IMG/VR virus record: IMGVR_UViG_2695420744_000014
DNA: 4,814 nucleotides
From: a virus
Taxonomy: Duplodnaviria > Heunggongvirae > Uroviricota > Caudoviricetes
Direction: 5' to 3' (one strand)
Shown here: in pieces, positions 2,030-4,814 of the stretch
Layout: the number at the start of each line of letters is the position of its first letter
Numbering within the stretch: position 1 is the stretch's first letter
Translations under genes and position numbers: made by a program
Notes under the pieces: model-generated
Told to the model about the DNA's origin: nothing
The model's database searches: none
The model's input: the letters and a program-made list of their open reading frames with translations, nothing else

Positions 2030-2455
2030 TTAGTGCATCACCACAGCATTCCCTGCCGGGCCGCCGCGATTCATCTGGTCATACAAAACAACCGCTGACG
2101 CAACAAAATCATCGACATCCTTCACCAGCCGATCCCTCCGTTCGACGATCTCACGGTAATATTCAGAACTGTGGCTGCGCATACGGGCCACCAGCAAAGG
2201 CGGCATCGCCTTTTCGATCGCCGGTAACAGAGCCTGCATTTTTTCAACAGCATCAGGGGTGTCTTTATCCAGCCAACGGAAAATTTTCTGGGTATTACGG
2301 GCCAGGGCTTCCGGATGGCTGTCGTCGTACAGTTCAGGGAACGTCATCCCCAGTTCGAAATAAGTCCGGGCTATTTCAGCTGCAGGAACTTTCTCACCAT
2401 CAGGGTATGCCCAGGCATTCATCGCCATGCGGATGTGCTCATGTTTGATTTTCAT
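2030..2455 (-). CDS. ydaT: YdaT-family protein (CII-like HTH regulator; reported as toxic when derepressed), 141 aa
   Basis: ATG at 2455-2453, stop TAA at 2032-2030. Its start overlaps the last 17 nt of the upstream Cro-like gene in another frame (translational coupling). Sequence recalled as the YdaT family of Rac / CP-933P prophages. It occupies the cII position between cro-like and O-like genes. Confidence 0.85.
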   Translation of the reverse strand: MKIKHEHIRMAMNAWAYPDGEKVPAAEIARTYFELGMTFPELYDDSHPEALARNTQKIFRWLDKDTPDAVEKMQALLPAIEKAMPPLLVARMRSHSSEYYREIVERRDRLVKDVDDFVASAVVLYDQMNRGGPAGNAVVMH

Positions 2456-2762
2456 GAATCATTTGCCTCTTGATGCTTCGGGTATGATCGTTTTCGTCAT
2501 TTGGTTGCTTCATCGACATATTCTGCGAATAACATGACGAGCGTCGTAAGTATGTCCAATCAACATCAGGACGAAGTTCTTCACACAGGACACCACCTTT
2601 TGTTGCTCGTTCAATCGCAGGACATCTCTCAGCAGGTAACTGACGTACACCTTTGATCCATTGATTTACGCTTGGAGGAGATACACCTAAAAGCCTAGCC
2701 ATTGCTGATTGCCCACCGACAACAGCACAAGCTCGTTTGAATGAATAGTTATCTTTTTTCAT
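2439..2762 (-). CDS. ydaS: YdaS-family Cro-like HTH protein (XRE-type), about 107 aa
   Basis: Preferred start ATG at 2762-2760 (MKKDNYSF...) with SD GGAG (complement of 2771-2774) about 8 nt upstream. The ORF track extends to 2783, but that start would sit inside the predicted promoter. HTH-like segment ACAVVGGQSAMARLLGVSPPSVNQWIKG. First gene downstream of the pR-like promoter, divergent from the repressor. Confidence 0.8.
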   Translation of the reverse strand: MKKDNYSFKRACAVVGGQSAMARLLGVSPPSVNQWIKGVRQLPAERCPAIERATKGGVLCEELRPDVDWTYLRRSSCYSQNMSMKQPNDENDHTRSIKRQMIHENQT

Positions 2763-2789: not shown

Positions 2790-2819
2790 ATATTAGGCTT
2801 AGCCTAATGAAATTGTCAA
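2790..2819 (-). promoter_or_regulatory. pR-like sigma70 promoter for the ydaS-ydaT-replication operon
   Basis: On the minus strand: -35 TTGACA (complement of 2814-2819), 18-nt spacer, -10 TAATAT (complement of 2790-2795). Predicted start near 2783, about 20 nt before the ydaS ATG. Both hexamers overlap operator palindromes. Confidence 0.55.
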
Positions 2820-2859
2820 TAGGCTATGCCTAATACATCGAGAGTAGGGATTGCCTAAC
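2792..2859. promoter_or_regulatory. Right operator region: three 17-bp palindromic repressor-binding sites between racR and ydaS
   Basis: Site 1 ATTAGGCTTAGCCTAAT (2792-2808, perfect palindrome); site 2 AATAGGCTATGCCTAAT (2818-2834); site 3 AGTAGGGATTGCCTAAC (2843-2859, degenerate). Centre-to-centre spacing is 26 and 25 bp, like lambda OR1-OR2-OR3. Binding by the adjacent repressor is inferred. Confidence 0.55.
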
Positions 2860-2886
2860 GCGATGCGCATAGGAGACTATTAAGCA

Positions 2887-3363
2887 ATGCTTAGTGGTAA
2901 AGACTTAGGCCGAGCGATAGAGCAGGCCATTAACAAAAAAATTGCATCAGGAGCCGTCAAATCAAAGGCGGAAATCGCACGTCATTTCAAAGTCCAACCA
3001 CCATCAATCCATGACTGGATTAAGAAAGGTTCGATAAGTAAAGACAAACTTCCAGAACTATGGCGTTTCTTTTCTGATGTGGTTGGTCCAGAGCATTGGG
3101 GGCTTAACGAATACCCCATACCAACCCCATCCACTTCAGATACAAAAAGTGAACTTTTAGACATAAACAGCCTTTATCAAGCCGCCTCTGATGAAAAAAA
3201 AGCAATTGTGGCTTTCATCTTATCTGGAAATGCTACGGAGCCTAGTTGGGTTGATTATGACGTTCGCGCCTACATTGCCGCAATGGAAATGAAGGTAGCT
3301 AACTATCTGAAAAATCAAGAATCAAAACGGAAAAGCCAGAACATCACCAAGACAGGAACTTAA
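2887..3363 (+). CDS. racR: RacR-like prophage repressor (N-terminal XRE/cI-type HTH, no S24 peptidase domain), 158 aa
   Basis: ATG at 2887 with AGGAG at 2871-2875 (spacer about 11 nt, slightly long); stop TAA at 3361-3363. Divergent from the Cro-like gene and flanked on both sides by the operator palindromes. HTH-like N-terminus (GKDLGRAIEQAINKK...KAEIARHFKVQPPSIHDWIKKG). Length and context match Rac-prophage RacR; identity is from recall. Confidence 0.8.
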   Translation: MLSGKDLGRAIEQAINKKIASGAVKSKAEIARHFKVQPPSIHDWIKKGSISKDKLPELWRFFSDVVGPEHWGLNEYPIPTPSTSDTKSELLDINSLYQAASDEKKAIVAFILSGNATEPSWVDYDVRAYIAAMEMKVANYLKNQESKRKSQNITKTGT

Positions 3364-3437
3364 ACTTATATGGTCCGACGGGAAATTCCTAGTTCCCGTT
3401 AGTTAACTCCTACTACCTCTCCCACAAACCATCACCT

Positions 3438-3500
3438 ATTAGGTTGCGCCCAAATTATTAGGCATAGCCTATTGACAAGTAATTAGGCATTTCCTATAGT
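3438..3500 (+). promoter_or_regulatory. pL-like sigma70 promoter with left operator sites, driving plus-strand genes downstream of racR
   Basis: -35 TTGACA at 3472-3477, 17-nt spacer, -10 TATAGT at 3495-3500. Operator-like palindromes ATTAGGCATAGCCTATT (3457-3473) and ATTAGGCATTTCCTATA (3482-3498) overlap the -35 and the spacer/-10; a degenerate third site lies at 3438-3454. The 23-mer TATTAGGCATAGCCTATTGACAA (3456-3478) is an exact inverted copy of 2813-2835. Confidence 0.55.
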
Positions 3501-3681
3501 TTTCCCATACCAACCCATCCCGTCCCACACAATACAGGGCAATACCTCGAGTTACCAGGCAGTGGTCAGGGGTTAAGTAGCCAGCCCGAGGCGTAAGAAC
3601 ATGACGGCAGGGTTCAACTTTAATAACTATGCAGCAGGTTTTTGTTCCGCTACCCCGGCGTTAAGGGGAAATGAGGTCAGC

Positions 3682-3834
3682 ATGGATACTATCGAGCTTG
3701 GCAACAACGAATCTCTGGTATGCGGCGTGTTTCCCAACCAGGACGGCACGTTTACCGCGATGACATATACCAGAAGCAAAACGTTTAAAACTGAAGCTGG
3801 CGCGCGTCGCTGGTTAACCAGAAACACTGACTGA
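3682..3834 (+). CDS. Small early-left protein (50 aa), YdaF-like / DUF1391-like by recall
   Basis: ATG at 3682 with SD GAGG at 3673-3676 (5-nt spacer); stop TGA at 3832-3834. The ORF track starts at ATG 3601 (77 aa), but that start has no convincing SD. Family assignment is tentative. Confidence 0.5.
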   Translation: MDTIELGNNESLVCGVFPNQDGTFTAMTYTRSKTFKTEAGARRWLTRNTD

Positions 3835-3845
3835 TGAGGTTGACG

Positions 3846-4166
3846 ATGGAATTTAAAGATTTACCAGTACCATTCCAGGAAATGGCATCGAATGTGGTTC
3901 GCTCTCAACTGGCGACTCTTGACCTGAGTACCGTAGAAAAAGAAACCATCGACAATATATCCGGTAACGTACGCCGAGCCTTTATCGGGCTGTACGAAGA
4001 GAAGCAGCTCTCTGATAACCAGGATTTACATGAAAAATACTTCCTGGATCTAATGGACATCATTGATAAGGGGTTTGGCTTGTTAATGAAAAAGAAAGGG
4101 ATTCGAATAGAACCCCTTGAAAATTACTTTGCAACAAAAAGCATTAATTCTTTTGATTCAAAATAA
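3846..4166 (+). CDS. Hypothetical protein (106 aa from ATG 3846), charged and probably helical, function unknown
   Basis: ATG at 3846 with SD GAGG at 3836-3839 (6-nt spacer). An alternative ATG at 3834 overlaps the upstream stop (TGATG). Stop TAA at 4164-4166. GC content falls toward the 3' end. I recognise no family. Confidence 0.5.
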   Translation: MEFKDLPVPFQEMASNVVRSQLATLDLSTVEKETIDNISGNVRRAFIGLYEEKQLSDNQDLHEKYFLDLMDIIDKGFGLLMKKKGIRIEPLENYFATKSINSFDSK

Positions 4167-4419
4167 GAGAATTAATTACAGACTTAACATGCTCTTTCTC
4201 ATGATTGAAGCTCTCATGATTGAAAGTGCCGGGTTGAAGCGAGTCGATATAATCAACAAGACTCTGTCGTACGACTTCATTTTTATCCATAACAGATGCA
4301 AGAAATGAAATTGCTAAAAGAGTTATATCACTACGCGCCGCAGCATGTTGCAATGCTTTATCAAAATTATTAATCTGGCGTATCAGGGAGTTAATGATTT
4401 CATCATTTTCAGTCGACAT
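4144..4419 (-). CDS. Hypothetical protein (91 aa), AT-rich, function unknown; convergent with and overlapping the 106-aa gene by 23 bp
   Basis: ATG at 4419-4417 with a strong SD AGGAGG (complement of 4425-4430) and 5-nt spacer; stop TGA at 4143-4141 (coordinates follow the ORF track's 3' boundary). The track ORF extends to 4752 from a TTG start; that extension is rich in rare Arg codons (CGG, CGA, AGG) and unlike the rest, so I treat it as non-coding. Contains a 15-bp in-frame tandem duplication. Confidence 0.5.
   Translation of the reverse strand: MSTENDEIINSLIRQINNFDKALQHAAARSDITLLAISFLASVMDKNEVVRQSLVDYIDSLQPGTFNHESFNHEKEHVKSVINSLILNQKN
4197..4226. repeat. Two-copy 15-bp tandem direct repeat (TCTCATGATTGAAGC / TCTCATGATTGAAAG) inside the 91-aa gene
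   Basis: Seen directly; 13 of 15 positions identical. In the minus-strand frame it encodes the duplicated peptide FNHES/FNHEK. Confidence 0.7.
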
Positions 4420-4439: not shown

Positions 4440-4814
4440 TGATTAAGGAGTTCTCCACGGGTGAGGTGGAGTGCGTGCGCCGGACACGGGTGAGCATCCG
4501 GCACTGACAGTTTACTGAAAGGATATTTCCCTGAAAAGTCAGACCATAACGCGAAAGCGCCCGGCGAGGTAGCTGGTTCATAGATAGCCTGTCGTTAAAT
4601 TTTCGTCGACCGTGCGTTTCCGGTTGTGGCAATCCGCGAAATGGCGCGGCGGTAAGTATGGCGGGGTTATTCCTTCCCCGTTGAGGACACCGAGTTGTCA
4701 GGTTGACCATACGCTTAAGTGACAACCCCGCTGCAACGCCCTCTGTTATCAATTTTCTGGTGACGTTTGGCGGTATCAGTTTTACTCCGTGACTGCTCTG
4801 CCGCCCTTTTTAAA
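4440..4814. other. Structured, GC-richer, apparently non-coding block upstream of the 91-aa gene; possible long 5' leader, ncRNA or REP-like element
   Basis: No credible ORF on either strand. Hairpins read directly: CTCCAC/GTGGAG (4453-4471); GCCGGA/TCCGGC (about 4475-4504); CCGCG/CGCGG (4634-4649); CGGGG/CCCCG (4662-4680); GTTGTCA/TGACAAC (4694-4726). No sigma70 promoter for the 91-aa gene was found inside it. Confidence 0.3.

Follow-up and report, generated by a model that had tools for sequence, protein, structure and literature searches.

The stretch of DNA analyzed here (4,814 nucleotides, hereafter the window) comes from a Rac-type lambdoid prophage of Escherichia coli and contains its immunity region, in which racR lies between two outward-facing early promoters that carry copies of the same operators. 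We think it very probable that this is a lambdoid switch in which RacR acts on two mirror operator/promoter arrays to silence both early operons. The switch is largely known already: the left module corresponds to the racR-ydaS intergenic region of K-12, which has been characterized experimentally in published work. The right module is its expected counterpart, an explicit Rac OL/PL element that we found described in no accessible paper; an earlier description is possible. The preliminary description had proposed a racR gene bracketed by two outward promoters with the same operators, as in lambda, and all points that could be checked agree with it.

The RacR orthologue, the ydaS/ydaT gene content, and the intergenic repeats all match those of Rac, and the TTAGGC/GCCTAA inverted repeats that overlap the TTGACA-18-TAATAT ydaS promoter match the published elements (PMC9638921). 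Genes are arranged as ydaV-ydaU-ydaT-ydaS in the leftward direction and racR, followed by the PL operon (DUF1391 ... DicF), in the rightward direction. The racR gene (positions 2887 to 3363, plus strand; PGAP annotation), which is annotated as racR in identical genomes, encodes a 158-aa repressor with a conserved N-terminal helix-turn-helix (HTH) domain (aa 1 to 75); 142 of the 158 residues (90%) are identical to those of K-12 RacR. RacR had no Pfam match at an E value of ≤0.01 and no meaningful match among PDB sequences, and it lacks the C-terminal Peptidase_S24 autocleavage domain that defines SOS-cleavable repressors of the CI/LexA type. On the minus strand, ydaS (2439 to 2762; Pfam YdaS_toxin, 3.8e-30, and P22_Cro, 1e-8) is Cro-like and comes first in the PR operon, and the YdaS HTH is 41% identical to that of RacR over 29 aa. 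It is followed by the CII-like ydaT (2030 to 2455, minus strand; Pfam YdaT_toxin, 2.8e-10) and by O/DnaC-like replication genes (Pfam HTH_36 and IstB_IS21). The YdaT-box, ATGATTCATGAAAATCAA (2445 to 2462, minus strand), is identical to the K-12 box, which has been footprinted (PMC11879457). On the plus strand, the first annotated gene 3' of PL is a DUF1391 gene of the ydaF/ydfA type (3682 to 3834; Pfam DUF1391, 9.3e-28), and the gene for the DicF sRNA (4755 to 4806; Rfam RF00039, 76.7 bits, E = 2.7e-16) lies 1.25 kb downstream of PL in the same orientation. In the prophage locus L001, dicB comes next. This prophage, which spans 28.7 kb and adjoins ompW, is larger and apparently more complete than K-12 Rac and retains integrase, excisionase, Q, and lysis genes; an isolated phage, vB_EcoS-683R6, is 86.8% identical across the whole region.

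The left module is built around a PR-type promoter, PydaS (2790 to 2819, minus strand; 10/12), with a -35 hexamer TTGACA at 2819 to 2814, an 18-nt spacer, and a -10 hexamer TAATAT at 2795 to 2790. From it, ydaS-ydaT and the replication genes are expressed, and its hexamers are identical to those of K-12 PydaS in the alignment. The spacer is filled by OR1 (2792 to 2808), a perfect 17-bp palindrome, ATTAGGCTTAGCCTAAT, without mismatches to TTAGGC-N3-GCCTAA, which overlaps the -10 hexamer by 3 to 4 nt. OR2 (2818 to 2834; core ATAGGCTATGCCTAA, one mismatch) abuts and overlaps the -35 hexamer. OR3 (2843 to 2859; core GTAGGGATTGCCTAA, two mismatches) lies in the racR promoter region and is kept in K-12, and the 3-nt spacer of OR4 (2879 to 2895; TTAAGCAATGCTTAG, three mismatches) overlaps the racR ATG (2887 to 2889). 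The centers, at 2800, 2826, 2851, and 2887, are 26, 25, and 36 bp apart. With an extra TTAGGC half-site at 2905 to 2910, the left array comprises four palindromes and a half-site, rather than one or two palindromes.

All four OR sites occupy the same positions in K-12 according to the sequence alignment, and the K-12 region has been studied extensively. Binding of RacR to the racR-ydaS intergenic region and repression of ydaS were demonstrated by EMSA, ChIP-qPCR, and reporter assays (PMC5700373). DNase I footprints yielded a logo with an ATTAGGC half-site, and PydaS (TTGACA/TAATAT) was mapped by primer extension and mutagenesis of its -10 element (PMC9638921). In the same study, O1, the counterpart of OR1, was protected at the lowest RacR concentration, and an operator with a spacer that overlaps the start codon corresponds to OR4 (PMC9638921). 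We assume, by analogy, that RacR binding and ydaS repression hold for the 90%-identical allele in the window. Usage of the racR promoters in this allele is uncertain because the -10 hexamers mapped in K-12, GAGAAT and AGTAAG, read GAGACT and ATCGAG here in the alignment.

The right module mirrors this arrangement. A PL-type promoter (3472 to 3500, plus strand; TTGACA-17-TATAGT, 11/12), the best in the window, has a predicted start at ∼3507 and points toward the DUF1391 gene and, beyond it, DicF and DicB. OL1 (3482 to 3498; TTAGGCATTTCCTAT, two mismatches) sits in its spacer and overlaps the -10 hexamer; OL2 (3457 to 3473; TTAGGCATAGCCTAT, one mismatch), 25 bp away, ends with the T that begins the -35 hexamer; and OL3 (3438 to 3454; TTAGGTTGCGCCCAA, two mismatches) is a weak distal site 19 bp from OL2. 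Conservation of OL3 is limited to its left half and to Escherichia alleles. The proposal of three right-hand operators at intervals of about 25 bp has to be amended, as the centers fall at 3446, 3465, and 3490, with spacings of 19 and 25 bp, and the distal site is weak. Autoregulation, which had been placed at these sites, would by lambda analogy belong to the left array, with its racR promoters and start codon. The promoter and the module as a whole are kept in K-12, with seven substitutions across 3432 to 3500, five of them in spacers or linkers. Accessible papers yielded no direct evidence of RacR binding or transcription initiation at the right module; RacR binding at OL and PL activity are predicted, and occupancy of OL1 and OL3 may need cooperativity because each has two mismatches.

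Between racR and PL, an 8-bp hairpin (3377 to 3400, plus strand) follows the racR stop codon and shows one compensatory change, G:C to A:T, relative to K-12 in the alignment. A role in weak termination or in RNA processing is possible; an intrinsic terminator was rejected, as the hairpin has no U-tract, was not called by the scan, and lies in an 86-nt fold that is not significant (z = -0.88). The initial transcribed region of PL (3493 to 3535, plus strand) is C rich and G poor and includes the 40-nt stretch with the greatest excess of C over G anywhere on the plus strand of the window (18 C, 2 G), making it a candidate Rho utilization (rut) element. A 13-mer, CCCATACCAACCC, is common to this leader and to racR (3115 to 3127) as a direct repeat. 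Rho-dependent termination (trac) occurs inside racR in K-12 (PMC4150792). A structured leader was discarded: the fold was no better than those of shuffled sequences (z = +1.33), and Rfam gave no match there.

The two modules are joined by an exact 23-nt inverted repeat, with arms TTGTCAATAGGCTATGCCTAATA (2813 to 2835), which contains OR2, and TATTAGGCATAGCCTATTGACAA (3456 to 3478), which contains OL2, separated by 620 nt. By our arithmetic, ∼2e-7 exact inverted 23-mers would be expected by chance in 4.8 kb [(4814^2/2)/4^23]. Along with this repeat, the preliminary description had reported two near-consensus outward promoters overlapped by 17-bp operators; both promoters are where it placed them and are the best two matches in a promoter scan of the window, and TTAGGC-N3-GCCTAA palindromes overlap both. 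When the whole window was scanned for this motif with up to three mismatches, all eight matches fell within 2793 to 2919 or 3439 to 3497; 200 shuffled windows had 1.54 ± 1.31 matches, and none reached eight. Across the 28.7 kb of L001, with up to two mismatches, there were only six matches, all in the two arrays.

To follow the arrays in relatives without bias as to the DNA motif, we used 12 loci retrieved by protein (4 from Escherichia and 8 from elsewhere). The downstream module is present in all four Escherichia loci and in five of the eight others (Mixta, a Pseudomonadota MAG, Proteus, and two Achromobacter loci), with the pattern TTAGGC-N3-GCCTATTGACA-N5-TTAGGC-N3-RCYTAH followed by a -10-like T-A-N-N-N-T; the -10 hexamer of PL in distant relatives is TAATAT, TAACAT, or TACTAT. 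No downstream array was found within 2 to 2.5 kb of sequence in the Klebsiella (L009), Nitrosomonas (L012), and Aeromonas (L014) loci, and the Aeromonas locus is the one diverged case, with only three-mismatch operator sites. A second set, of viral contigs, was collected by searching with the module pattern, which makes the invariance of pattern positions among them circular; at least 120 contain the module, and in 83 both copies are present, divergent and 624 to 628 bp apart. Where the sequence of the other loci reaches far enough, most show a second array 0.6 to 2.3 kb away. Where a RacR-like ORF could be recognized (113 loci), the module lies downstream of it in 110, 86 to 1,398 bp past the stop codon; at one locus, it is 2.3 kb past the repressor stop codon. 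The order operator-TTGACA-operator-(-10) is seen wherever the module is present, in protein-retrieved and viral loci alike. Conservation is concentrated in islands (OL2, -35, OL1, and -10), and the linker at 3405 to 3428 is variable. Alignment of operators across related prophages had been named as a check, and the two-array design is indeed kept across hosts.

Proteins vary around this core. In all relatives recovered, both the half-site and the DNA-binding domain of RacR vary hardly at all, and the near-invariance of the domain fits that of the half-site. The repressors of one Achromobacter locus (L013; 362 aa) and of the Aeromonas locus (225 aa) combine the same N-terminal domain with Peptidase_S24 (E ∼6e-15). 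In some relatives, the repressor gene and OL are separated by cargo genes, which differ by locus.

In the mechanism that we favor, RacR dimers would bind palindromes of 15 to 17 bp, (A)TTAGGC-N3-GCCTAA(T), in two mirror arrays flanking racR. Each array has one site in the spacer and -10 element of a strong sigma-70 promoter and another fused to the -35 element (GCCTAT|TGACA). The left array (OR1 to OR4) overlaps PydaS, the PR analogue, together with the racR promoter region and start codon, and the right array (OL1, OL2, and the weak OL3) overlaps the rightward PL analogue, which is predicted to read through DUF1391 ... DicF-DicB-exonuclease-xis-int. With RacR on the two promoter-proximal sites of each array, RNA polymerase would be shut out and both early operons kept silent, and the weaker OR3 and OR4 could mediate negative autoregulation of racR. 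YdaS, with its related HTH, would be the Cro-like competitor, and YdaT would act at its own box. Transcriptomic data from K-12 show that both arms are derepressed when RacR falls: ydaS is upregulated, and ydaG, ydaF, kilR, ydaE, and racC rise 40- to 70-fold (PMC6765115). For the rac recombination genes, zygotic induction is a classical result (cited in PMC5917428). YdaS is reported to act in the racR-ydaS intergenic region, and K-12 reporters showed no repression of racR by it (PMC9638921); for Rac, the term "bistable" is therefore unproven, and the Rac switch may be asymmetric, unlike that of lambda. We infer cooperative pairing, OL-OR bridging over ∼0.65 kb, and true bistability for Rac.

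Other readings of the right module can be weighed against promoter occlusion at two arrays. It is possible, in our view a little short of an even chance, that the right array serves mainly as auxiliary operators that a RacR octamer brings together with the left array, in a 0.65-kb loop that tightens PydaS repression and racR autoregulation, and that its promoter is minor in vivo. RacR is an octamer in solution by size exclusion chromatography (PMC11014345), the same motif recurs in both arrays, and interarray distances of 0.6 to 2.2 kb are tolerated, as for looping partners; lambda and the discussion of PaaR2 (PMC8630535) offer precedents. The published model places the octamer on the four intergenic sites and not in a loop (PMC11014345). 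A minor promoter sits poorly with the operator-fused TTGACA and the -10-like hexamer at 17-nt spacing in every relative with the module, and with the co-oriented genes that come next and are the ones derepressed in K-12. Looping and occlusion are not exclusive, and a loop would add to the two-array mechanism rather than replace it. We regard as improbable the idea that the right module is a decaying relic of a cryptic prophage, consensus-like and no longer bound or firing. Rac-type elements are often defective, and OL1 and OL3 are imperfect, but the core is kept across genera and in the isolated phage vB_EcoS-683R6, allele differences sit in spacers and linkers, L001 retains its integrase, excisionase, Q, and lysis genes, and the K-12 transcriptomic data (PMC6765115) also argue against decay.

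The perfect inverted repeats around a single gene superficially resemble the ends of an insertion sequence or MITE, and lambdoid immunity regions are mosaic, with variable cargo (DicF/DicB here, where K-12 has kilR). The 23-nt repeats could be read as bounding a cassette that moves or recombines, either as transposon-like terminal repeats or as a hot spot where immunity modules are exchanged, with arms that are identical through recent duplication or gene conversion. We consider this exceedingly unlikely and reject it: operator half-sites and the -35 hexamer account for 17 of the 23 positions, the flanks contain no direct repeat (taatgaaa versus gtaattag), no transposase was found by a Pfam search, and the distance between the arms varies from 0.6 to 2.2 kb in relatives. 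Neither empty-site alleles lacking exactly 2813 to 3478 nor target site duplications were seen. Within loci, the 3-nt spacers, which are free of constraint, agree between the PL and PR copies in 32 of 45 cases, with 32.1 expected by chance; because this is the chance level, there is no sign of locus-specific gene conversion, and conversion between the two modules was rejected. The identity of the arms reflects shared constraint, operator plus -35, and not gene conversion.

The Rac arrays can also be compared to known switches. K-12 Rac has the same genes in the same order, with identical PydaS hexamers and YdaT-box and with OL/PL present. It differs in its PL operon, ydaG-ydaF-(sieB)-kilR as opposed to DUF1391, a hypothetical gene, DicF, and DicB in this allele, and in the mapped racR -10 hexamers, which are altered here. 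As in lambda, the repressor gene lies between outward lytic promoters with several related palindromic operators at roughly two-turn spacing (19 to 26 bp in Rac array sites), cro-like and cII-like genes are divergent, and PL is co-directional with and downstream of the repressor gene; the cargo that relatives carry before OL resembles lambda rexAB, and RacR is reported to form octamers. Unlike the lambda repressor, RacR lacks an S24 autocleavage domain; four sites make up the left array, versus three in lambda, the operator sequence is unlike that of lambda, Rac sites supply parts of both promoter hexamers, and the Rac arrays are 0.65 kb apart, compared to about 2.3 kb. Lambda also has positive autoregulation and repression of the repressor promoter by Cro, both of which are hypothetical for Rac. 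Another parallel is CP-933P of E. coli O157:H7, a sister cryptic lambdoid prophage of the YdaS/YdaT type with an octameric repressor, PaaR2, and a PaaR2-YdaS-YdaT switch that uses PR933P, PRM933P, and PL933P (PMC8630535). There, the PL/OL analogue has been verified experimentally and is repressed by PaaR2 and YdaS in reporters (PMC8630535). CP-933P differs in its operator consensus, which consists of GTTTAGTAA repeats, and in the toxin-antitoxin pair paaA2-parE2, which is cotranscribed with the repressor; bistability has been demonstrated experimentally in CP-933P, whereas it is inferred for Rac.

The Rac immunity region governs genes that are toxic if derepressed: ydaS/ydaT, kilR or dicB/DicF, and recET. 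The racR gene is essential in K-12 because the genes that it controls are toxic when derepressed. Published work and models take in only the operators of the racR-ydaS intergenic (OR) array. A tentative joint reading, to which we give somewhat less than even weight, combines an octamer loop of ∼0.65 kb between OR1-OR2 and OL1-OL2 with a portable cassette and a Rho lock. RacR octamers may bridge these two pairs instead of, or besides, the four intergenic sites. If this is true, the family would be a portable cassette composed of a near-invariant DNA-binding domain and two mirror promoter/operator modules, around which the repressor C-terminal domain (RacR type or S24) and the cargo between repressor and OL are exchanged, and the C-rich, rut-like leader that directly follows PL would put the kil/dicB arm under a second lock, Rho. 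No new principle is involved: the design is that of lambda, made from different parts. A second conserved module downstream of racR offers a direct explanation in cis for co-derepression of the "left arm" genes and an alternative reading of the RacR octamer.

The preliminary description had placed a single repressor gene between two outward-facing promoter/operator modules; this finding is real, and its interpretation was correct in outline. The gene is racR (2887-3363, + strand). All coordinates given in that description were borne out. A repeat search confirmed the exact 23-mer at 2813-2835 and, on the other strand, at 3456-3478, and the two outward promoters, TTGACA-18-TAATAT (− strand, 2819..2790) and TTGACA-17-TATAGT (+ strand, 3472..3500), are the top two sigma-70 matches of the window. 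With up to three mismatches, the operator palindrome TTAGGC-N3-GCCTAA has 8 sites in the window (1.5 expected), all within 2793-2919 or 3439-3497; in a 28.7-kb stretch of prophage, just six sites have at most two mismatches, and they make up exactly the two arrays. The left array (OR) comprises four palindromes, centered at 2800, 2826, 2851, and 2887, the fourth of which spans the racR start codon, and an extra half-site at 2905-2910. The right array (OL) had been described as three operators at about 25-bp spacing: two good sites, OL2 (3458-3472) and OL1 (3483-3497), are indeed 25 bp apart, but the third (3439-3453) is weak and lies 19 bp from OL2.

The modules mirror each other. Read 5′ to 3′ on the transcribed strand, each consists of an operator, TTAGGC-N3-GCCTAT, fused to TGACA, then 5 to 6 nt and a second operator, with whose last bases the −10 hexamer starts; thus, a dimer on the proximal site would cover the spacer and the −10 element, and a dimer on the next site would cover the upstream edge of the −35 element. 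The 23-nt repeat is the −35-fused operator plus TTGACA, and bases of the half-sites or of the −35 element account for 17 of its 23 positions. When 45 distinct PL/PR combinations collected from related loci are compared, the unconstrained 3-nt spacers of the PL and PR copies match in 32, against 32.1 expected by chance; the identity therefore reflects a common constraint rather than recent gene conversion or the end of a mobile element.

The left module corresponds to the stretch between racR and ydaS in Rac, a region that has been investigated in detail in Escherichia coli K-12. There, RacR binding was detected by thermal shift, EMSA (three complexes), and ChIP-qPCR, and a ydaS reporter was repressed by RacR (PMC5700373). 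Primer extension defined PydaS as TTGACA/TAATAT, DNase I footprinting showed protection of the ydaS promoter first and of the racR promoter region next, and the half-site was defined as ATTAGGC and the inverted repeats as (T/A)TAGGC-N3-GCCTA(T/A), with the spacer of one repeat overlying the racR ATG; racR reporters were not repressed by YdaS (PMC9638921). In size-exclusion chromatography, RacR behaves as an octamer, which the authors connect with the four intergenic inverted repeats (PMC11014345). YdaT, a CII-like activator, acts at a YdaT-box (PMC11879457). According to Jobling's letter, it has long been recognized that YdaS is analogous to Cro and YdaT to CII, and zygotic induction of the rac recombination genes is a classical finding (PMC5917428). 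As a system, this is the Rac immunity switch and already known. The YdaT-box in the window, ATGATTCATGAAAATCAA (2445-2462, −), is identical to the K-12 site. The K-12 racR-promoter −10 elements PracR3 (GAGAAT) and PracR2 (AGTAAG) read GAGACT (2873-2878) and ATCGAG (2837-2842) here, and the racR promoters in use may, judging from these sequences, differ between the alleles. The reverse, PRE-like PracR4 promoter inside ydaS keeps its −10 element TACGCT (2668-2673, +); its −35 element is TTGACG in K-12 and CTGACG in the window.

Prophage DNA 100% identical to the 4,814-nt window is present in several E. coli chromosomes, the K-12 Rac prophage is ∼90% identical over racR and its flanks in the opposite orientation, and the entire region is also present, at 86.8% identity, in an isolated phage, vB_EcoS-683R6. 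The leftward arm, all on the − strand, contains ydaS (2439-2762), ydaT (2030-2455), genes for an O-like HTH protein (1075-2022) and a DnaC/IstB-like ATPase (322-1068), and a ydaW-like fragment (64-300), and in the complete prophage continues to Q and lysis genes. On the + strand, the rightward arm carries a DUF1391 gene (3682-3834), a hypothetical gene (3846-4166), and a full-length DicF small RNA gene (4755-4806; Rfam RF00039, 76.7 bits); beyond the window lie dicB, a DUF1482 gene, exonuclease, xis, and int, with ompW adjoining. DicF is co-oriented with PL and 1.25 kb downstream of it, and dicB is next; RacR would thus control a DicF/DicB division-inhibitor arm in this Rac-type prophage, whereas K-12 Rac has kilR. 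Inside the PL operon, a small antisense ORF (4144-4419, −; 91 aa, without a Pfam match) runs into the 3′ end of the gene before it; in K-12 Rac, sieB occupies the corresponding slot in the opposite orientation.

Aligning operator sites across related prophages had been proposed as a check, and the sites are indeed shared. Twelve loci were selected through their RacR-like proteins, with a single genome taken for each species, which makes the sample unbiased as to the DNA motif; 11 of the 12 have the upstream array. A downstream module with the very same architecture occurs in all four Escherichia loci and also in those of Mixta, a Pseudomonadota MAG, Proteus mirabilis, and two Achromobacter species. 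In Mixta, the MAG, and P. mirabilis, the module follows the stop codon by 87 to 105 bp; in one Achromobacter locus it follows by 0.76 kb, and in the second it sits ∼2.3 kb beyond the repressor gene. It was not found within 2 to 2.5 kb of sequence in the Klebsiella, Nitrosomonas, and Aeromonas loci. A pattern scan of viral contigs yielded at least 120 loci with the module; selected by the pattern itself, this set is informative for pairing, orientation, and distances only. Both modules are divergent and 624 to 628 bp apart in 83 of the loci listed, and in most of the other listed loci with sufficient flanking sequence, a second array lies 0.6 to 2.3 kb away. Where a RacR-like ORF is recognizable among the matches listed, the module lies downstream of it in 110 of 113 loci. 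Where the repressor-OL distance is long, cargo genes intervene, in the position of rexAB in lambda; they span 0.8 to 1.4 kb in many viral contigs, and examples of such loci are L015, L105, L107, and the Achromobacter locus L013. One such cargo encodes a 389-aa protein with an HSDR_N (type I restriction enzyme N-terminal) domain, and another consists of three small ORFs.

RacR in the window is identical to K-12 RacR at 142 of 158 residues; searches found no Pfam domain in it and no sequence relative in the PDB. Residues 1 to 75, including the HTH (...PPSIHDWIKKGSISKDKLP.LW...), are nearly invariant across all relatives, which fits the invariant operator half-site. In Achromobacter, Aeromonas, and Nitrosomonas, this DNA-binding domain is 65 to 78% identical to that of RacR over the first 77 to 93 residues. 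The C-terminal part is RacR-type in enterobacteria, a fused Peptidase_S24 domain in Achromobacter (L013:2501-3586, 362 aa) and Aeromonas (L014:2501-3175, 225 aa), and an unrelated short tail in Nitrosomonas (L012:2501-2941), and the Achromobacter and Nitrosomonas loci, at least, keep the operator motif. The pattern resembles domain swapping, in which a conserved DNA-binding domain is combined with different sensor/oligomerization domains. RacR is thus a CI-type DNA-binding domain without an SOS-cleavable domain: its action on DNA is like that of lambda CI, but it lacks this hallmark of CI/LexA-type repressors. The YdaS HTH is 41% identical to that of RacR over 29 aa, a likeness compatible with operators common to both.

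The first 40 nt transcribed from PL (3493-3532, +, within an initial region extending to 3535) are the most C-rich, G-poor 40-nt + strand stretch of the window (18 C, 2 G) and share an exact 13-mer, CCCATACCAACCC (3504-3516), with a C-rich stretch inside racR (3115-3127 within 3108-3147). Both regions look like Rho-utilization elements. In K-12, a Rho-dependent terminator within racR, trac, protects cells from kil expression (PMC4150792); the PL leader may contain a second rut-type element. Just 3′ of the racR stop codon lies an 8-bp hairpin without a U-tract (3377-3400, +); relative to K-12, both bases of one stem pair are changed (G:C to A:T). Placed between racR and OL, the hairpin may serve as a weak terminator or a site of processing. 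The ∼95-nt untranslated leader from PL to the first ORF (3536-3600, +) is well conserved relative to K-12 and other alleles (e.g., GAGTTACCAGGCAGTGGT...GGTTAAGTAGCCAGCCCGAGGCGTA), with no significant fold or Rfam match found in it.

RacR dimers on OR1/OR2 and OL1/OL2 would very probably occlude both lytic promoters, OR3 and OR4 would mediate negative autoregulation of racR, and loss of RacR would fire both arms. Functionally, the right module is an expected part: when racR expression is lowered in K-12, ydaS rises, and ydaG, ydaF, kilR, ydaE, racC, and ralA rise 40- to 70-fold or more (PMC6765115). K-12 carries the same module with seven substitutions, almost all in spacers or linkers, next to a scrambled upstream stretch (3405-3428). 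In the sister prophage CP-933P, a PL/OL analogue with hexamers identical to those of CP-933P PR was verified experimentally and is repressed by the octameric PaaR2 and by YdaS (PMC8630535). Because RacR is octameric, pairwise cooperativity and a candidate OL-OR bridge are plausible, if tentative; bistability has been demonstrated for CP-933P and is putative for Rac. We found no description of operators or a promoter downstream of racR in the accessible literature. The sole increment here is an explicit, conserved OL/PL module, an undescribed but expected part of the switch, and its implication for the octamer model.
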